NCBI GenBank assembly: GCA_013334575.1
Contig: JAAXXG010000005.1
Span: 3,080 to 67,079 of the forward strand
Direction of reading: 5' to 3'
From: Candidatus Moraniibacteriota bacterium
Lineage (GTDB): Bacteria; Patescibacteriota; Minisyncoccia; Moranbacterales; UBA1568
DNA: 64,000 nt
Each line of letters opens with the position of its first letter. Positions within the stretch are counted from its first letter, which is position 1. The notes beneath the pieces were generated by a model, which saw only the letters and a list, made by a program, of their open reading frames with translations, did not search any database and was not told the DNA's origin. Positions 7,057 through 40,210 of this stretch are shown in pieces. The translations under genes were made by a program, and so were the position numbers.

Positions 7057-7866
7057 TCAGGAACGCGATTCCCCGATCCGACCGACGAGGCCTATCCAGT
7101 CCGCAACGGACAGCTCCTGCGCCCGAATCCTCGTATCAAGCCCCATTCCGGACAAGATCGCCTCTACCTCTCCGCGAGGAATCCGCCGACTTGAGGAAAG
7201 ATTGTTCGCGAGCGTCTTGCGCCGGGCAGCGAACCCGGCCCGCGCGAGACCGAACAGTTTCCGGTCGTCCTCCTTGAGAAACGGCCTCTGCGGCACCAGC
7301 TTTACGACCGCACTGTCGACATTCGGCTCCGGAAAGAACGCCGTCCGCGGAACGAACAGTTCCTTCGATACCGTCGCGTAGTACTGTGCCATGAGCGACA
7401 GAAGGCTCATGCTTCCCGAGGGTGCGGCCAACCGGTCGGCGACCTCCTCCTGAACCATGAGAACGATCCGCTCCGGCCGTATCGGAAGCGACAGCAAAAG
7501 ACGGATGATCGGCGCCGTAATGTAGTACGGGATATTCGCGACGACCTTGTATGCCCCGTCCTCAAAACCGGATTCCCGAAGCAGCGCGGCGACATCCAGC
7601 TCGAGGATGTTCCCTTCGAGGAGCGACAGGTTCGCGGACGCGGCGAAGGTCTCGCCGAGACGGGTCACGAGGTCGCGGTCGAGTTCCACGGCCAGCACCG
7701 ACGCTGCCCGCTCCAGGAGATGCGACGTAAGGGCTCCCGTACCGGGGCCTATCTCAAGGATCCGGTCTTCCGGTCGGACATCGGCGACGGAAAGGATTCC
7801 CTCGACGATATCCGTGTCCCGAAGAAAGTTCTGCCCGAGCGATTTTTTTGCTTTCACCTGTTCCAT
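7057..7866 (-). CDS. rsmA: 16S rRNA (adenine1518/1519-N6)-dimethyltransferase
   Basis: MEQVKAKKSLGQNFLRD...ILEIGPGTGALT is the KsgA/RsmA signature. Confidence 0.9.
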   Translation of the reverse strand: MEQVKAKKSLGQNFLRDTDIVEGILSVADVRPEDRILEIGPGTGALTSHLLERAASVLAVELDRDLVTRLGETFAASANLSLLEGNILELDVAALLRESGFEDGAYKVVANIPYYITAPIIRLLLSLPIRPERIVLMVQEEVADRLAAPSGSMSLLSLMAQYYATVSKELFVPRTAFFPEPNVDSAVVKLVPQRPFLKEDDRKLFGLARAGFAARRKTLANNLSSSRRIPRGEVEAILSGMGLDTRIRAQELSVADWIGLVGRIGESRS

Positions 7867-10848: not shown

Positions 10849-11271
10849 TCACCCGTCCGATCGTTCGGACAGATATGCGAACACGAACCATACGGCACCC
10901 ACGGTAAGCCAGACATCGGCGAGATTGAAAGCCGGAAACCAGGAGACGACCGAGAAATCCCGGACACATCCCCACAGGATACGATCGACGAGATTTCCGA
11001 TTCCTCCGGCAAGAATGAATATGAGAGGCAGCCTTCCGTACCGCATATCTCCCCGAAACGATACGACCGCAAGACCTCCGAGCACGATCGCCGAGACGGC
11101 CGCGTACGTCGACGAGTCACCGGAAACGCCCAACGGCCCGAACGGATTGCACGACGAACCCGGGTGCCCCATGAAGACCGCCTTTATGGACAGATCCGAA
11201 AACAAAAGGGCCGCGAACGCCATCGCGTCACGACCCTTTTCCGTCGATGGGACATGGTACCTCACCTTCAT
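10849..11271 (-). CDS. lspA: lipoprotein signal peptidase II
   Basis: GNLVDR...FNLAD motifs. Start taken at MKVRYH. Confidence 0.8.
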   Translation of the reverse strand: MKVRYHVPSTEKGRDAMAFAALLFSDLSIKAVFMGHPGSSCNPFGPLGVSGDSSTYAAVSAIVLGGLAVVSFRGDMRYGRLPLIFILAGGIGNLVDRILWGCVRDFSVVSWFPAFNLADVWLTVGAVWFVFAYLSERSDG

Positions 11272-11275
11272 CACG

Positions 11276-11629
11276 CTAAGCCTTCGCGCAGGATATGCAC
11301 TCCTTTGCGGCCGGATACGCTCGGAGACGACCCTCCTCGATTTCCTGACCGCATTCGGCACAGATACCATAGGTCCCGGCCTCGATTCGTCCAAGCGCTT
11401 CCTTCACCTCGTTAAGCTGACTTTCCAGATTCTCCTCGAGCGCCACGTTATCGGAGTACTGTTCGACCTCGGTCGCGTTATCATCCCGGTCCGTGCCGAT
11501 ATCCTCGTATCGAGCCTCGTACTCGCCGTCTTTCTTGTCCGCAAACAAGCCGAGTTCGGATTCGAGCCGACTCTTCGAGGCGAGCAATGCCGCCTTCATC
11601 TCCTCGCGGAACGCTTCGGTCATGGTCAT
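11276..11629 (-). CDS. DksA/TraR-family C4 zinc-finger protein
   Basis: C-terminal CAECGQEI...CISC zinc finger following a coiled-coil acidic region. Confidence 0.7.
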   Translation of the reverse strand: MTMTEAFREEMKAALLASKSRLESELGLFADKKDGEYEARYEDIGTDRDDNATEVEQYSDNVALEENLESQLNEVKEALGRIEAGTYGICAECGQEIEEGRLRAYPAAKECISCAKA

Positions 11630-11714
11630 ATCGTTGCAATTTCCGGTTACGAGGTCATTGTACGCCCCAAAATCCCCGAAGTAAAGCCACATGAAAACAC
11701 CGGGGCCGGAGCGA

Positions 11715-12113
11715 TCAGATGAATATCCCTTCGAAATGTCTGATATTCGGATCCTTCTCCCCGACCCGAAAGACGATCAGAACGGCATCGAAACGGTATG
11801 ATACATCCCGCTTCCCTCGTTCCCGGAGATACTCCTCGGCGACCCTGGCCAATTTCCTAAGTTTCGAAGGCGTAATCGCCTCCTCGGGAAAGACCTCTTC
11901 CACCGAGGCATCGGCAATACGAGCCTTCACTTCCACGAAGACGATTCCCCTATCGTCCGAAGCGACGATATCGACTTCGCCCACCGCTTTCCCCCGCCCG
12001 TTACGATAGTTCCGTTCCAGTATACGGTACCCCTTTGAACGCAGATATCGGGCGGCCGCATCCTCGCCGCGCCTACCGGTCTCGTCCCGAAGGTGGAATC
12101 TCCGCGTCATCAT
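11715..12113 (-). CDS. yraN: YraN/UPF0102 family endonuclease
   Basis: GEDAAARYLRSKGYRILERNYR...GEVDIVA...VFVEVKAR is the YraN core. Confidence 0.8.
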   Translation of the reverse strand: MMTRRFHLRDETGRRGEDAAARYLRSKGYRILERNYRNGRGKAVGEVDIVASDDRGIVFVEVKARIADASVEEVFPEEAITPSKLRKLARVAEEYLRERGKRDVSYRFDAVLIVFRVGEKDPNIRHFEGIFI

Positions 12114-12752
12114 ATTGGCATGATATCCCGTTCAGGCATTCCAGCCAACAAAAAAACGCCCTCTCAGGCATCCGCTTACCGCACCCGCCGCTTCCGTCTC
12201 CGCCCGACAGCCCTCCGTATGGATATTGTTGGGTTGTCGGGCGCCAGGCCCGTAGTCCAAATAAATAAATATATGACTGGAGCACCGACGCCCGACCGCA
12301 TGTCCCAACACGCGATCCTGCGATATAACCCTTCGGGTGATGAGGGTATCTATCGTCAATAAAGACCTCGTGTAGTTTGTGGATATGCTTTTCCCTTTTG
12401 CCGTCTTGTCTGACTTTTCGACAGCTTTTTTCTTTCACCGTTCTCTGGCGCTTGGCCTTTGGAGTAAAAAGAACGGATTTTCCCTTTTTGTTTTTGTATA
12501 AACGCGCCGAGTATTTATTGTTTCGGCGTTGTTTATGTTTGTTTTGGGTCCCCGTGTCAGATCCGGGGCGACGGAAGAGGGATCTCGTACTCGCGGAACG
12601 GAACGTGAGCGGTCCGCGTGCCGATCCGCGAGTACAAGGAACTTCCATACTTGAACAGTGAAAGAGGTCTCAGCCACAAACAGGGGGAGTATCGTGGCTG
12701 AAACTTCTTTCCCCGTTCACTCGTTCTCGGGTTTTCAACGTACTTACAGGTC

Positions 12753-12781
12753 CATTATAGCATGCGAAACGACGAGGGTCA
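12753..12781 (-). promoter_or_regulatory. consensus sigma70 promoter (TTGACC-17-TATAAT) heading a ~630-nt untranslated region upstream of yraN
   Basis: Minus strand reads gaTTGACCctcgtcgtttcgcatgcTATAATgg with exactly 17-nt spacing. Confidence 0.55.
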
Positions 12782-12916
12782 ATCGTAACATGCATTCCAC
12801 TCAGCATTCATCGGGAATTTCGGACACTCGCACGATCATGAACGGAAGTCTGCCGGTTCATGTCCGAAAAAGAAGTCGCCCACTTTCTTTTCGTTCCCCG
12901 TTCAAGCCGTTTTCCG

Positions 12917-13987
12917 TCACTTCTGTATCGCACGACCGAGCACGGCGCGGAACGAATCCTTGCTCGTTCCGACGACAAGACGATCGCCGAGAAGCATGTA
13001 GTCGAACGAAAGATCCGAATCGGACGAGATGATAGCGAAGCGGGTCTTCGACGCGCCGAAAGATCCGTCGCGAAACGCCGCCTGCGACGGAACGTTCGTA
13101 TCTGCCGTATACAGGACCGGAGCGAATGCCGACGGCATAGCCGATTCGGTCTCCGGCGCCTCGGAAAGAAGGATGTTCCGCATCGCCTCCTTATCCTTTA
13201 CGGAAAGAGCCAATGCGCGACGGACACCGCCGGCCTCCGGAATCATATAGACGGAAAACGATTCATCCAGATCGGACAGCACGGTCTCCGGCACCTTAAG
13301 GCCGAGCAGATAGGCGAATCGCGAGAACGCGATAGGGTTGTTATCCGTATCGCGGACGAGGAATTCCACGGGAACGAGCGGAGACATGGAAGAAACTCCC
13401 GTGGCCGCCTTGTCCAATACCGACAGTATCGCCTCACGTGACGACGACTCCGTGTCGATATTGAGGTAGTTCGGCTTTGATGCGGAGTATGTTCCGGCAT
13501 CTTCGACCCCGAGGTCTCCCGACCGAGTCGGAGAAACGGCCTGCTCCGCTACATTTCCCGCTTCCCGGACGTCGGCATTCCGATTCGTCATATACGCGAA
13601 TGCCGCCACACCGAGCACCGCCAGGGCGACCAGGGCCCCGATCAGTCGCAGGTTCTCACGCTTCGGAACGAACATCGAAAGAGAGGAAAGAAATGCGAGA
13701 GGATTCGTCTTCTCGCCGCCTTTTGACCGATTTCCGGAAACGGATGCCGGCGCAACGGCTCCATCCGCCGAAGCATCCGCGCCAAGAAACGGATTCCCGG
13801 CAAGAGCCGAACCGCCGCGTGCCGCGCTCACATCGTCATGATCCGACTCCTTCGAGGTCTTCCCCTTGCCGGAAAGCTCGTCGAGATCATCCTGCATCAC
13901 GCGAACATGACGAAGATCCTCGACCGGAACCGCATTCGGATCATCCTGATGGCTGTGCTTATCGAAAATCTCCTTAAGATCGCTCAT
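12917..13987 (-). CDS. hypothetical single-pass membrane protein
   Basis: 356 aa with an acidic N-terminus, one TM (LIGALVALAVLGVAAFAYM) and a large extracytoplasmic domain. Confidence 0.5.
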   Translation of the reverse strand: MSDLKEIFDKHSHQDDPNAVPVEDLRHVRVMQDDLDELSGKGKTSKESDHDDVSAARGGSALAGNPFLGADASADGAVAPASVSGNRSKGGEKTNPLAFLSSLSMFVPKRENLRLIGALVALAVLGVAAFAYMTNRNADVREAGNVAEQAVSPTRSGDLGVEDAGTYSASKPNYLNIDTESSSREAILSVLDKAATGVSSMSPLVPVEFLVRDTDNNPIAFSRFAYLLGLKVPETVLSDLDESFSVYMIPEAGGVRRALALSVKDKEAMRNILLSEAPETESAMPSAFAPVLYTADTNVPSQAAFRDGSFGASKTRFAIISSDSDLSFDYMLLGDRLVVGTSKDSFRAVLGRAIQK

Positions 13988-14088: not shown

Positions 14089-16224
14089 CTATTCCTGCGT
14101 CCCTTCGGTCTCTTCGCGCTTGAGCGCCATCCGACGGGAGAGGTTGATGCGACCCTGAGCGTCGATCTCCTTGACGACGACCGGAACGACATCACCCACC
14201 TTCACGATGTCTTCCACCTTCTCGACGCGGTAATCCGCGAGTTCCGAGATATGGATAAGCCCTTCCTGGTTCGGCAGGACCTCGGCGAAGGCGCCGAAGT
14301 TCATCAGCCGGGTAATACGGCCCTGGAACAGCTCTCCGGCCTTCACCTCGCGGGTCAGGTTGCGGATCCATTCCGTGGCCTCCTTGGCGCTCGTTTCGTC
14401 GGTCGAGGTGATGAAGACCGAGCCATCATCCTCGATGTCGATCGATACCCCCGTCTCGTCGATGATCCGGTTGATCATCTTGCCGCCGGGCCCGATGACA
14501 TCGCGGATCTTGTCCGGGTTGATACGCAGCGTGATAATGCGCGGCGCGTACGGAGACATCTCCTTGCGCGGCTCAGGAAGCGCCTCGAGCATCTTCCCGA
14601 GAATGAAGAGCCGGCTTTCCTTGGCCTGCGTAAGCGCCTCGGCAAGGCGCTCAGGCGTCAATCCGTCGATCTTCACGTCCATCTGCATCGCGGTGATACC
14701 GTCAGCCGTCCCGGCAACCTTGAAGTCCATGTCGCCGAAGTGATCCTCGAGACCCTGGATGTCCGAGAGTACGCGGTATTCCCCATCGCCCTCGATGATA
14801 CCCATCGCGATGCCCGCGACCGGCTTCCGGATCGGAACGCCCGCGTCCATGAGTGAGAGCGTGGAGCCGCAGGTCGAAGCCATCGACGAGGAGCCGTTGG
14901 ATTCGAGCACCTCGGAAACGAGGAGGATGGTGTACGGGAACTCCTCCTGCGGCGGAAGCACTGGCAGGAGCGCCTTTTCGGCGAGCGCCCCATGTCCGAT
15001 TTCGCGCCGTCCGGGGCCGCGCATCGGCCGGACCTCTCCCACGGAATACGGCGGGAAGTTGTAGAAGTGCATGTAGCGCTTCTTCATATCCACTTCCATG
15101 GTATCGACGATCATCTGGTCGCCGGGAGCGCCCAAGGTCGTCACGGTCAGTGCCTGCGTTTCGCCGCGGGTGAAGAGTCCCGTCCCGTGCGTTCGCGGAA
15201 GCACGCCGACATGCGCCGAGATCGGACGGATCTCGTCCATCTTGCGTCCGTCCGGACGGCGTCCCTCGCGGAGGACCTTCTCGTGCAAGATCTCATCGGA
15301 AAGTTCGTCCATCACCAGATGCGAGATCTCGCCGAGCGAGCCCGCCTCGGCCGGATACTTTTCGGCGACATACGCCTTCATCTTCTCCTCGATCGCCCCG
15401 AGCGCCGCATACTTCTCCTCCTTCTTCTTGTCGGAGAACAGCGCATCGGCGAGTCCCTCGTTCCGAAGGAACGCCTTCAAGTCCTCATCGAAACCCTCCG
15501 GCCCCGAAAGCACGATCGCCTTCGCCTTCGGCCTGCCGATCTCGGCACGGATATCCTCGATGAACCGCGCGATCTTCTGGACGTTCTCGAATCCGAACCG
15601 GAACGCCGCGGCCATGTCGGCTTCCGGAAGTTCGTTCGAACCGGCCTCGATCATGTTGATCTTGTCCTTCGTGCCGGAGAGGACGAGATCGAGTGTGTTT
15701 CCGCCGTTTTCCCGTTCCTCCGTCGAGGGGTTGAGCACGAATTCCCCGTTGATCCGCCCGACGCGGACAGCCGCGACCGGCCCGTTCCACGGGATGTCGG
15801 AAATAGCAAGTGCCGCCGACGCTGCGATGATCGCGACGATGTCCGGATCGTTCTCTCCGTCGATCGAAAGCACGGTCGCGACGACCTGTACCTCGCTGCG
15901 CATCCGCCCATCGAACAGCGGGCGTATCGTGCGATCGACCGCGCGACCCGAGAGGATCGCGTCGTCCGACGGCCGACCCTCACGCTTGATAAAGCGGGAT
16001 CCCTTTATCTTTCCAGCCGCGTAATACCGCTCCTCGTAATCGACCATGAGCGGGAAATACCCGCGAGACTGCCCTGCGCTCTTGGACATGACCGCCGTCG
16101 CGAGGACGACCGTCTCGCCGTAGCGAACCGTCACCGCCCCGTTCGCCTGCTTCGCGAGCAGACCGGTCGAGATGCGGAGCTCCCGGCCGCCCAACTGGAG
16201 CGACCAGCTCTTCAGTTCCTGCAT
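14089..16224 (-). CDS. pnp: polyribonucleotide nucleotidyltransferase (PNPase)
   Basis: Two RNase PH domains plus KH and S1 domains. Follows rpsO. Start taken at MQELKS. Confidence 0.95.
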   Translation of the reverse strand: MQELKSWSLQLGGRELRISTGLLAKQANGAVTVRYGETVVLATAVMSKSAGQSRGYFPLMVDYEERYYAAGKIKGSRFIKREGRPSDDAILSGRAVDRTIRPLFDGRMRSEVQVVATVLSIDGENDPDIVAIIAASAALAISDIPWNGPVAAVRVGRINGEFVLNPSTEERENGGNTLDLVLSGTKDKINMIEAGSNELPEADMAAAFRFGFENVQKIARFIEDIRAEIGRPKAKAIVLSGPEGFDEDLKAFLRNEGLADALFSDKKKEEKYAALGAIEEKMKAYVAEKYPAEAGSLGEISHLVMDELSDEILHEKVLREGRRPDGRKMDEIRPISAHVGVLPRTHGTGLFTRGETQALTVTTLGAPGDQMIVDTMEVDMKKRYMHFYNFPPYSVGEVRPMRGPGRREIGHGALAEKALLPVLPPQEEFPYTILLVSEVLESNGSSSMASTCGSTLSLMDAGVPIRKPVAGIAMGIIEGDGEYRVLSDIQGLEDHFGDMDFKVAGTADGITAMQMDVKIDGLTPERLAEALTQAKESRLFILGKMLEALPEPRKEMSPYAPRIITLRINPDKIRDVIGPGGKMINRIIDETGVSIDIEDDGSVFITSTDETSAKEATEWIRNLTREVKAGELFQGRITRLMNFGAFAEVLPNQEGLIHISELADYRVEKVEDIVKVGDVVPVVVKEIDAQGRINLSRRMALKREETEGTQE

Positions 16225-16427
16225 AGCCGTCGTCCCGGCTCGGAACGACGAAGACCCGAAACGCAAAAAGGAGAGAAGAAAGGCTTTTCCTGCCTCTTTT
16301 TTGAGTTTGAGCCGCCGCGATCCGCCCGAGAATATGAATGATTACCTTCACCGCCACTCTAGGGGGAAGCGGAATGAAAGTCAATGAAGGCGCCCCGCGT
16401 GGGACGCCTTCGTGAAAATCAATCCCC

Positions 16428-27439: not shown

Positions 27440-27513
27440 GGGCGGCTAGCTCAGTTGGTTAGAGCGCCACATTGACATTGTGGAGGTCACAAGTTCGAAT
27501 CTTGTGTCGCCCA
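27440..27513 (+). tRNA. tRNA-Val (GAC)
   Basis: Cloverleaf folded by hand. Acceptor GGGCGGC/GTCGCCC with A73, anticodon loop ttGACat, T-loop TTCGAAT. Confidence 0.8.
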
Positions 27514-27526
27514 CATACCGCATAAG

Positions 27527-30353: not shown

Positions 30354-30426
30354 GGGCCTGTAGCTTAGTTGGTAGAGCGCCTCCATGGCATGGAGGAGGT
30401 CAGGAGTTCGAGTCTCCTCAGGTCCA
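30354..30426 (+). tRNA. tRNA-Ala (GGC)
   Basis: G3:U70 identity pair, anticodon loop atGGCat, T-loop TTCGAGT. Confidence 0.8.
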
Positions 30427-30477
30427 CACCCATACCGTATTCATGCCATTTTGACGCTCTATACGGCCATCGGTTCC

Positions 30478-30549
30478 GCCTCGATAGCTCAATGGATAGA
30501 GCGAATCCGTCCTAAGGATGAGATCTAGGTTCGATTCCTAGTCGGGGCA
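30478..30549 (+). tRNA. tRNA-Arg (CCT)
   Basis: Acceptor GCCTCGA/TCGGGGC, anticodon loop gtCCTaa, T-loop TTCGATT. Confidence 0.7.
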
Positions 30550-30641
30550 CAAAAAACCTTTCTCAGGCGAATACGACCCATCTTTGACAAAATACCGAGA
30601 TTGCGCGACAATGCTCCGATTAGACACCGAAAGGAAACTCC

Positions 30642-32672: not shown

Positions 32673-32743
32673 GGTCCGATGGCCGAGTGGTCAGGCACGG
32701 GTCTGCAAAACCCTTCACGGCGGTTCGATTCCGCCTCGGACCT
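32673..32743 (+). tRNA. tRNA-Cys (GCA)
   Basis: Acceptor GGTCCGA/TCGGACC with U73 discriminator, anticodon loop ctGCAaa. Confidence 0.65.
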
Positions 32744-32775
32744 CAAGCAAATGAATCGGCCCTTTGAGCGGATAT

Positions 32776-32859
32776 GCCGCGGTGGTGGAACTGGTAGACA
32801 CAGGAGACTTAAAATCTCCCGGCCGCAAGGCCATGCGGGTTCGATTCCCGCCTGCGGCA
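32776..32859 (+). tRNA. tRNA-Leu (TAA)
   Basis: Long variable arm, anticodon loop ctTAAaa, acceptor GCCGCGG/CTGCGGC with A73. Confidence 0.8.
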
Positions 32860-32896
32860 CAAGAGTCGATGGCGATTTCCGAAACAAAACGAACAC

Positions 32897-39428: not shown

Positions 39429-39437
39429 GTTCTTTTG

Positions 39438-39509
39438 AGCGGGTAACGGGAGTCGAACCCGTATTTCGTCCTTGGCAAGGACGCGTAATAGCCGCTATAC
39501 GATACCCGC
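39438..39509 (-). tRNA. tRNA-Gly (GCC)
   Basis: Acceptor GCGGGTA/TACCCGC with U73, anticodon loop ttGCCaa, T-loop TTCGACT. Confidence 0.75.
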
Positions 39510-39559
39510 TTACTTCCTGGACATGCTACCGACTTTCCCTCCATCCGGCAAGAGGAGTG

Positions 39560-39632
39560 TGGGACTGGCTGGATTCGAACCAGCGACCAAGCGGTTATGA
39601 GCCGCCTGCTCTAACCGCTGAGCTACAGTCCC
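39560..39632 (-). tRNA. tRNA-Met (CAT), elongator-type (could be tRNA-Ile2/lysidine)
   Basis: GGGACTGTAGCTCAGCGGTTAGAGC..., anticodon loop ctCATaa, and G1:C72 excludes an initiator. Confidence 0.7.
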
Positions 39633-39699
39633 GGCCCCATCGCGGATCGGAAACGGTGGATAAACGGTGATATTCCCGAGTTATCCACAGGATTTCCTG

Positions 39700-39771
39700 T
39701 GCCTGGAGACAGAATCGAACTGTCGACACGAGGATTTTCAGTCCTCTGCTCTACCACTGAGCTACCCAGGC
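39700..39771 (-). tRNA. tRNA-Phe (GAA)
   Basis: GCCTGGGTAGCTCAGTGGTAGAGC..., anticodon loop ctGAAaa. Confidence 0.8.
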
Positions 39772-39861
39772 GACTTTCCCCATTATACACGCTTTCTGTG
39801 CACGCTCAAGGACTCGTCCAGCATTCGCCGGACGCCCCGCGAATGCGGGGCGAACCCCGTG

Positions 39862-39935
39862 TGCACGCTGAGAGATTCGAACTCCCGACCCCCTCGGTGT
39901 AAACGAGGTGCTCTAACCAACTGAGCTAAGCGTGC
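39862..39935 (-). tRNA. tRNA-Val (TAC)
   Basis: GCACGCTTAGCTCAGTTGGTTAGAGC..., anticodon loop ttTACac. Confidence 0.8.
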
Positions 39936-40126
39936 GGCCCATTCAACCGTCAGTATAATCGACCCCGAGAATCATGCAACCCGGACAACGAAAGAGGGTG
40001 GCCTTCCACCCTCGCTGCGTTCGGTTGTTGTCCAGGTGAGCCCGCCTCGCTTCGCTGCGGCCTTCTCGTCCTCCCGCACGTCGAATCGTCGACGTGCTTC
40101 CTGGCCACTCTCACTCCGTTCGATTG

Positions 40127-40210
40127 TGCCCAGGAGAGGACTCGAACCTCCAATCCCTTGCGGGAACTAGCACCTCAAGCTAGCGCGTATACCAATTCCG
40201 CCACCTGGGC
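40127..40210 (-). tRNA. tRNA-Leu (GAG)
   Basis: Long variable arm, anticodon loop ttGAGgt. Confidence 0.75.

Follow-up and report, generated by a model that had tools for sequence, protein, structure and literature searches.

Introduction

To our knowledge, large, intricately folded bacterial RNAs are rare, with about a dozen classes known. Most of the large classes have proved to be ribozymes, essential cores of ribonucleoprotein (RNP) particles or RNA-only assemblies. The OLE (RF01071), ROOL and GOLLD RNAs, which occur in Firmicutes, Lactobacillales or phages, belong to a size class of about 500–800 nucleotides (nt) and homo-oligomerize; for RNAs of this type, one report describes kissing-loop contacts in homo-oligomers resolved by cryo-electron microscopy (PMC12286853). 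Here, we analyze a 64,000-nt stretch of DNA from Candidatus Moraniibacteriota bacterium (assembly GCA_013334575.1, contig JAAXXG010000005.1, positions 3,080 to 67,079; hereafter, the window), and within it the gap between hyp356, a gene for a 356-amino-acid (aa) hypothetical protein, and yraN. A preliminary description of this gap, made from the sequence alone, had noted a promoter, several hairpins and a run of U residues, and had proposed a structured non-coding RNA, a very long regulatory leader or an attenuator. We conclude, with a probability of roughly 0.8, that positions 12150–12782 of the minus strand form an independent gene whose product is a large, structured non-coding RNA, probably a trans-acting housekeeping RNA with a putative strand-exchange module.

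We assign this RNA to a family of its own among the large structured RNAs of bacteria; it is nearest in kind to OLE, ROOL and GOLLD and is a member of none of them. It resembles these RNAs in size class, in combining many helices with invariant single-stranded stretches between them, in its restriction to one lineage, in a function that is not deducible from context, and in kissing-loop contacts, which in this case are detected by covariation. In addition, ole adjoins oapA, a membrane-protein gene, and the RNA gene of Moranbacteria adjoins hyp356, which also encodes a membrane protein. There are also differences. There is no match to the covariance models of OLE, ROOL or GOLLD; the host lineage is part of the Candidate Phyla Radiation (CPR), with no phage association seen; and the gene has its own promoter and terminator rather than a position within an operon. 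Furthermore, the A-rich linkers and the three-strand exchange module of the Moranbacteria RNA have not been described for OLE, ROOL or GOLLD. Its kissing loop and strand exchange could be either intra- or intermolecular, and the covariation fits both.

A conserved single-copy transcription unit downstream of pnp and hyp356

In the window, pnp, which encodes polynucleotide phosphorylase (PNPase; 14089–16266), is followed by hyp356, the gap, yraN, a dksA-like gene, lspA and comM. Read on the minus strand, the gap extends from the hyp356 stop (12917) to the yraN ATG (12113), and the GC content inside it dips to 0.38–0.45 in an A-rich middle, compared to about 0.56–0.62 in the flanks. Using PNPase as the query, we retrieved 80 species-representative loci (GTDB) with 67–89% identity, nearly all labelled Candidatus Moranbacteria or Moraniibacteriota (CPR/Patescibacteria). 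The gene order from pnp to comM is conserved across the 66 loci that have both flanks, and in these loci the gap measures 475–1213 nt (median, 768) and is always lower in GC than the rest of the locus.

Homologs of the RNA were sought with blastn and then with a hidden Markov model built from the 11 closest sequences (nhmmer). A full-length homolog is present in every orthologous gap (E = 1e-159 to 1e-24), and the 64-kb window holds a single copy. All 72 informative GTDB species loci carry one copy of the RNA; the eight loci without a copy, out of the 80 in total, all stop less than 1.6 kb after pnp and were hence counted as uninformative. The loci with the most distant hyp356 (28% identity) also hold the RNA together with the same promoter. 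A scan of metagenomes with a degenerate pattern of the 3' domain produced at least 120 pattern matches, and at least 49 metagenome loci are true homologs, all located downstream of pnp-hyp356. Among the listed matches, 71 of 120 arose by chance and were discarded on the basis of the nhmmer results. The scan of viral contigs returned five pattern matches, all by chance inside a viral coding region.

The unit is bounded by conserved signals. The sigma70 promoter reported upstream, TTGACC and TATAAT separated by 17 nt, is present one base away from where it had been placed; it matches the consensus at 11 of 12 positions in the promoter scan, and its spacer ends in TG-C, which adds an extended −10 element. 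Exactly one promoter of the form TTGAC-N12–16-TGnTAnAnT occurs per gap in 66 of the 67 orthologous gaps. At the other end, the weak hairpin and U7 run that had been noticed near yraN are both present, with the run at 12156–12150, 37 nt ahead of the ATG (the promoter scan places the hairpin with its T-run at 12173–12154), and are in fact parts of a conserved, covarying intrinsic terminator: the relatives have a GC-rich hairpin followed by U6–8 about 500–750 nt past the promoter (median, 522), with stem substitutions that are compensatory between lineages. The RNAs of the relatives are about 500–750 nt long. The functional unit, 12150–12782 on the minus strand, is narrower than the region first delimited (12114–12916). 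Transcription would start at a conserved G located 7 nt past the −10 element (12747) and would end within the T-run, and, judging by the quality of the promoter, expression of the RNA is predicted to be strong and constitutive.

A fold supported by covariation

Folding and covariation, both of which had been proposed as checks, support an extensive structure of the RNA. The minus strand of 12140–12750 folds with −235.5 kcal/mol (z = −7.1 versus shuffles), and the plus strand reaches z = −3.5. In alignment A1, which comprises 43 sequences (the window and 42 relatives) with a mean column identity of 45%, RNAalifold predicts 55 pairs, 43 of which show compensatory changes. The curated structure consists of 14 helices with 88 pairs, for which 92.3% of the cells are paired, compared to 36–42% when the 3' partners are slid by 1–3 columns; in 67 of the 88 pairs, both sides change among the relatives. 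The covariation score is 0.446 versus 0.05–0.12 in the controls, and none of 500 shuffles reaches the observed values. An all-against-all G-test with average product correction ranks the same Watson-Crick pairs at the top on A1 and on an independent MAFFT alignment of 97 sequences. Cells with G·U outnumber those with A·C (299 versus 80), which identifies the RNA strand as the minus strand of the window.

All the long hairpins named in the preliminary description exist, and three of them are conserved, covarying helices, whereas the fourth, GTACTCGCGGA...TCCGCGAGTAC, lies in a genome-specific insertion, the 64-nt hairpin at the tip of helix P2. Other lineages have hairpin insertions elsewhere, in the region of linker 1 (loci L003, L047 and L044) or in the 5' region (L045, L041, L020 and L059). 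As in RNase P RNA and in ribosomal RNA (rRNA) with its expansion segments, the core is preserved while hairpins are added at permissive tips and linkers. The C-rich apical loop of P1 is frequent and not universal, and both A-rich linkers are nearly invariant, even in the window genome with its 58% GC.

The loops of the P3 and P4 hairpins vary together among lineages (UCUGAC/GUCAGA, CCUAAC/GUUAGG, UCUGGU/ACCAGA and UCGAC/GUCGA), and this covariation implies a kissing loop (or pseudoknot). In a low-GC sister lineage (L165, 2223–2830; L127, 2894–3440; L180, 2705–3300; L147, 3040–3685 on the minus strand; and L159; all are metagenome loci), yraN is gone, and the RNA retains the promoter, P1 with strands S1 and S2, the linkers, strand S3, the 3' domain and the terminator. 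The RNA of this lineage is otherwise trimmed: P2 is reduced, the loop of P3 has become AAACAU, and P4, the hairpin with which P3 would make its kissing contact, is lacking. The kissing loop therefore does not extend to the whole family.

One pyrimidine strand complementary to two purine strands

The most distinctive part of the RNA involves three strands: S2, a pyrimidine-rich strand, is complementary to both S1, the purine-rich 5' strand of P1, and S3, a second purine-rich strand that is nearly identical to S1. The motif that defines them has only these three occurrences in the 64 kb. In all 66 homologs tested, the best downstream duplex of S2 within the 300 nt searched is formed with S3, directly after CCAGAG, with energies of −13 to −19 kcal/mol, comparable to those of S1:S2. 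Across lineages, the three strands change in concert (CUCUUUCACUGUUC / GAACGGUGAAAGAG / AACGGUGAAGGGAG; AUCUUCUGCUGCUU / AAGAGCAGAAGAC / AGCGGUAGAAGAU; UUCUUCUACUAUUC / CUGGUAGAAGAAA / AAAAGUAGAGGA), and in the alignment of 97 sequences, positions 87 and 88 of S2 show covariation both with S1 (38 and 37) and with S3 (313 and 312). That a single strand covaries with two purine strands of nearly the same sequence implies pairings that exclude each other. The inner half of S2 suits S1 better and the outer half suits S3 better, so that the native state may consist of stacked, branch-migrating half-helices or of two alternating states. We infer a functional exchange between S1:S2 and S2:S3.

Under this model, S2 would first pair locally with S1 to form the P1 hairpin during transcription and would then pass, wholly or by its 3' half, to S3, which is made about 220 nt later. 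The resulting long-range S2:S3 helix would close the central region, in which P2, both invariant A-rich linkers and the P3 side of the kissing contact are located. A weaker, second exchange could take place in the 3' domain, where strand Y (12236–12245) always pairs with X (97.9%) and may alternatively pair with X', a second copy of the X strand. The switch might be triggered by a protein, by intermolecular pairing or by processing of P1, a hairpin of 22 bp. A purine-motif triple helix S1-S3-S2 was also considered and dropped by reasoning alone: it would require an antiparallel arrangement of the identical strands S1 and S3, whose sequence is asymmetric.

These comparisons establish, at the level of sequence, an independent RNA gene that every sampled Moranbacteria genome keeps in one copy, that has a complex fold supported by covariation, and in which the complementarity of three strands is protected. 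With its own promoter and terminator, 14 covarying helices and a kissing loop, it strongly supports the first of the possibilities raised for the gap, a structured non-coding RNA.

Alternative explanations

The leader or attenuator proposed for yraN-dksA-lspA did not hold up. It would require transcription from the 12782 promoter to read through into these genes unless the terminator forms, with alternative helices deciding the outcome, and several features fit such a scheme: most lineages have the RNA directly upstream of yraN and in the same orientation, it contains mutually exclusive helices, and only the 37 nt noted above separate the terminator from the ATG. As in attenuator and riboswitch platforms, one strand is kept complementary to two partners. 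However, the competing strands of the RNA lie outside the terminator, with S1, S2 and S3 at a distance of 250–500 nt from it, and they are of a different scale, 14-nt strands about 220 nt apart inside an RNA of about 600 nt. The terminator itself is conserved, and its 5' arm has no enriched complement in the 140 nt upstream (median z = −0.47; 7% below −2). A putative promoter of yraN, TTGGCT (12148–12143)-N17-TATCAT (12125–12120), overlaps the region of the T-run and ends 6 nt before the ATG, implying a separate, leaderless yraN transcript; the same geometry is found in L003, L005 and L006, and a −35-like box, TTG(C/T)T, is conserved right behind the T-run in 44 loci. Nor is there a regulated downstream gene common to all lineages: about 300 extra nt separate the terminator from yraN in L011 and L014, and in the low-GC lineage the RNA is kept without yraN, with a convergent next gene in L165, L127 and L180/L086 and a co-oriented open reading frame (ORF) without a yraN match in L147. 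We also know of no leader of 500–750 nt with 14 helices for the gene of a 132-aa nuclease. Since synteny is broken, yraN has a putative promoter of its own and no antiterminator was found, we reject this explanation, which we regard as very unlikely. A missed protein-coding gene, either a 191-aa ORF (ORF191; 12073–12648, minus strand) or a small ORF, is hardly credible. The original statement that the gap contains no credible ORF needs amending insofar as ORF191 does exist, being open in the window genome and annotated by gene callers in two assemblies of the same organism, but its frame is interrupted by 1–9 stops in all 42 aligned relatives. There is no 3-nt periodicity in the alignment (column entropy by codon position, 0.86, 0.85 and 0.81), indels between the gaps of relatives are not multiples of three, the longest ATG-initiated ORFs in relatives are mostly of 21–90 aa and lie at non-homologous places, and ORF191 has no Pfam match and would run through the terminator and overlap the yraN start.

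It is highly improbable that the RNA is a strongly diverged form of a known housekeeping RNA, namely, RNase P RNA, transfer-messenger RNA (tmRNA), 6S RNA or signal recognition particle (SRP) RNA, although a universal, single-copy, strongly promoted gene is what one would expect of such an RNA, and a conserved core with lineage-specific helix insertions, a long-range helix and loop contacts resembling a pseudoknot recall RNase P RNA in particular. In 10 of 35 circular CPR genomes, RNase P RNA falls below the Rfam thresholds (Lui et al. 2021, PMC8172020). Given that CPR RNase P RNAs are diverged and often missed, we tested for the RNase P hallmarks explicitly. Among 97 homologs, GAAAGTC occurs in 4, strict CR-I (GAGGAAAGUCC) in 1 and CR-V (ACAGAAnCCGGCUUA) in none; the tmRNA hallmarks are similarly scarce, with the T-loop motif in 1 and CCACCA in 2 of the 97, and the SRP motif is likewise within 0–4 of 97. 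RNase P RNA has CR-I and CR-V of its P4 as well as a terminal P1 helix, whereas in the 97 homologs a helix closing the 5' and 3' ends is absent (end-duplex median z = +0.35; 8% of sequences below −2), and the succession of helices, in which a local hairpin of 22 bp is followed by the pair of A-rich linkers and then by 3' hairpin domains, is unlike the P1-P4-P15 topology. The absence of a closing helix and the length of 500–750 nt also distinguish it from 6S RNA, a rod of about 180 nt with a central bubble that is closed by 5'/3' pairing. A motif scan for canonical rnpB in 1.96 Mb of collected locus sequence, including 64 kb of the window genome, found nothing convincing, which is uninformative as to where the canonical RNase P RNA is encoded. 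Searches with the 4227 models of Rfam 15 agree with the impression, gained earlier by eye, that RNase P, tmRNA and SRP elements are lacking: at gathering thresholds, the whole window yields tRNAs only and L032, L005 and L058 yield nothing, and ARAGORN finds no tmRNA. With lax filters and E ≤ 10, homologs representing three lineages (GC of 58%, about 45% and about 30%) produce only chance-level, sub-threshold matches of the hairpin type, none of them to RNase P (RF00010, RF00011), tmRNA, SRP, 6S (RF00013), OLE, ROOL, GOLLD, raiA or HEARO, so that no confident match to a known family emerges. The best match in this mode, a partial one to RsaE (35 bits, E = 4e-4) on the hairpin with the C-rich loop of the L032 homolog, bears on another possibility that we consider unlikely, an oversized base-pairing regulatory small RNA similar to RNAIII or RsaE that would use its C-rich P1 loop or its A-rich linkers to titrate messenger RNAs or an RNA chaperone. 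A C-rich apical loop UUCCCCCU is found in many homologs, a likeness to RsaE/RoxS (RF01820), and the A-rich linkers give faint CrcZ-like matches of about 10 bits. However, the RsaE match scores far under the gathering score (79) and spans only 68 nt of an RNA of more than 500 nt, or about 12%; several clades have another loop in place of the C-rich one (the L058 group and the low-GC lineage); and the best-conserved parts of the RNA are structured internal loops and long-range helices rather than this loop.

Several points weigh against our preferred reading, a stand-alone gene for a trans-acting structured RNA with a strand-exchange module. All the homologs come from one lineage, and the start site, the 3' end, the abundance and the action in trans are predicted from sequence signals. 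Given its position and orientation in most lineages, some read-through from the RNA gene may contribute to yraN expression. The controls for covariation were shuffles and slid partners, which ignore kinship, unlike tests of the R-scape type, and the alignments are MAFFT-based and were interpreted partly by hand. Among the individual contacts, the pairing of GUUCUUU with S3 (AGAGAAC) is broken without compensation in the clade that has GUACCUU and is unproven; CCAACA:UGUUGG shows no variation, so that this pseudoknot is unproven as well; and the X' alternative is absent from part of the 43 sequences. Finally, S1:S2 and S2:S3 may alternate, coexist as half-helices or form between molecules, and the covariation fits each of these arrangements.

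Features of the locus and neighboring genes

The elements of the RNA gene and the adjoining hyp356 are compiled in Table 1.

Table 1. Positions of hyp356 and of the predicted elements of the RNA gene, in window coordinates and in the order of transcription
Feature	Position	Strand	Evidence or comment
hyp356, 356-aa protein between pnp and the RNA	12917–13987	−	Acidic N-terminal region, one predicted transmembrane helix, conserved C-terminal domain
−35 box TTGACC	12777–12782	−	TTGAC retained in 66/67 orthologous gaps
Extended −10 element TGcTATAAT	12754–12762 (TATAAT 12759–12754)	−	TG-n-TATAAT or TATACT near-invariant in 44 full-length homologs
Predicted primary transcript, 598 nt	12150–12747	−	Single nhmmer match 12748–12150, E = 5e-95; alignment A1
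S1, purine-rich 5' strand of P1, GAACGGGGAAAGAA	12705–12718	−	93.6% of cells paired with S2; 13/17 helix pairs change on both sides
Inner P1 helices TCAGCCAC/GTGGCTGA with C-rich apical loop CUCCCCCU	12668–12703	−	Helices 1–2; pair 104:145 UA 23 / CG 18
S2, pyrimidine-rich strand CTCTTTCACTGTTC (CUCUUUCACUGUUC)	12653–12666	−	Complementary to S1 and S3
P2 helix ATGGAAG/CTTCCGT	12571–12648	−	7/7 pairs covary
64-nt GC-rich hairpin insertion at the P2 tip	12578–12641	−	Window genome only; 42 aligned relatives without it
P3 hairpin CCCC-GGAUCUGACA-GGGG, loop UCUGAC in the predicted kissing contact	12550–12568	−	Helices 4 and 5
A-rich single-stranded linker 1, AAAACAAACAUAAACAA	12529–12545	−	Invariant A columns (A1); kept in the low-GC lineage
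Variable hairpin CGCCG...CGGCG	12503–12528	−	Long insertions here in L003, L047, L044
A-rich single-stranded linker 2, UAUACAAAAACAAAAAGGGAAAAU	12477–12500	−	Invariant A columns; kept in the low-GC lineage
GUUCUUU motif with complementarity to S3 (5' part)	12467–12474	−	Near-invariant
Small hairpin GGC-loop-GCC	12447–12457	−	Helix 6; pair 293:299 CG 71 / UA 9 / GC 7 (97 sequences)
S3, second purine-rich strand, AGAGAACGGTGAAAGAA	12430–12446	−	Near-identical to S1; 97.1% of cells paired with S2; 7/12 pairs change on both sides
P4 hairpin, loop GUCAGA predicted to pair with the P3 loop	12400–12425	−	96% of cells paired; 4/6 pairs covary
P6-P7-P8 domain with invariant internal loop CACAAACU / UGG and hairpin loop UCAUCACCCG	12298–12388	−	Helices 8–11; pair 586:658 UA 20 / GC 16 / CG 7
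P9, X GTCGGGCGTC / Y GGCGCCCGAC, with the AU-rich P10 hairpin inside	12236–12296	−	97.9% of cells paired; 8/10 pairs covary
CCAACA, conserved, complementary to UGUUGG of P6	12226–12233	−	95–100% complementary
X', second copy of the X strand, candidate alternative partner of Y	12199–12209	−	Duplex of at least 8 bp with Y in 21/43 sequences, with compensatory variants
Intrinsic terminator GCC-UGAGA-GGGC plus U7	12150–12173	−	Stem covaries; T-run invariant across homologs

The hyp356 protein has no Pfam or NCBIfam match, and its named homologs are all hypothetical proteins of Moranbacteria, so that this neighbor provides no functional lead. It appears to be limited to Moranbacteria and stays beside the RNA even where yraN has been lost; the gene has its own terminator-like hairpin followed by T5 at about 12866–12890. 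The downstream neighbors were confirmed as YraN/UPF0102, a DksA/TraR zinc-finger protein and signal peptidase II. The longest lspA ORF and the dksA-like gene are on the minus strand at 10849–11394 and 11276–11692, respectively, so that about 120 nt at the end of the dksA-like gene are shared with lspA. The Pfam match of lspA starts only at residue 95, and the product called in another assembly has 140 aa; on these grounds, the true start of lspA is probably an internal codon.

Gene callers have placed spurious ORFs over the RNA gene in other loci as well, at 2090–2665 in L001/L002 and, with lengths of 49–72 aa on other contigs, at 7432–7581 in L208 and at 7182–7364 and 7472–7690 in L210. Such calls over the RNA are annotation artefacts. 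Elsewhere in the window, there are ten tRNA genes in four clusters (27440–27514, 30354–30550, 32673–32860 and 39437–40210), one of which consists of five genes on the minus strand. Genes for rRNA, RNase P RNA, tmRNA and SRP RNA were not found within the 64 kb.

Implications

Our search of the literature found no described RNA of this kind for Patescibacteria, Moranbacteria or Parcubacteria. CPR genomes are about 1 Mb in size and contain very little non-coding DNA. That every sampled Moranbacteria genome devotes 0.5–0.75 kb and a near-perfect promoter to this RNA argues for an important function. We infer that the RNA is abundant and has a housekeeping role in trans, either as a scaffold that binds protein or as a catalytic or assembly RNA, rather than being a cis-acting leader.

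A more specific proposal, which we put forward tentatively and hold to be possible rather than probable, is that this is an unrecognized class of housekeeping RNA, universal in Moranbacteria, which would be active only by way of an obligatory strand swap, protected in evolution, that replaces S1:S2 by S2:S3. In one version, the RNA could be a ribozyme or RNP core that is activated by processing or gated by a ligand or protein. In another, by analogy with ROOL, GOLLD and OLE, it could be a self-assembling RNA-only complex in which the kissing loop and the swapped strands connect different molecules. More speculatively, the invariant A-rich linkers might recruit an S1-domain or KH-domain protein, for example, the neighboring PNPase, a candidate suggested by the adjacency of pnp together with the linkers themselves.

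Current annotation misses this RNA entirely, and the ORFs placed over it obscure the gene further. The three-strand exchange offers a natural, evolution-validated example of what would be a large-scale conformational switch in RNA. The family could also be used as a lineage marker and provides a target for study in bacteria that have not yet been grown alone.

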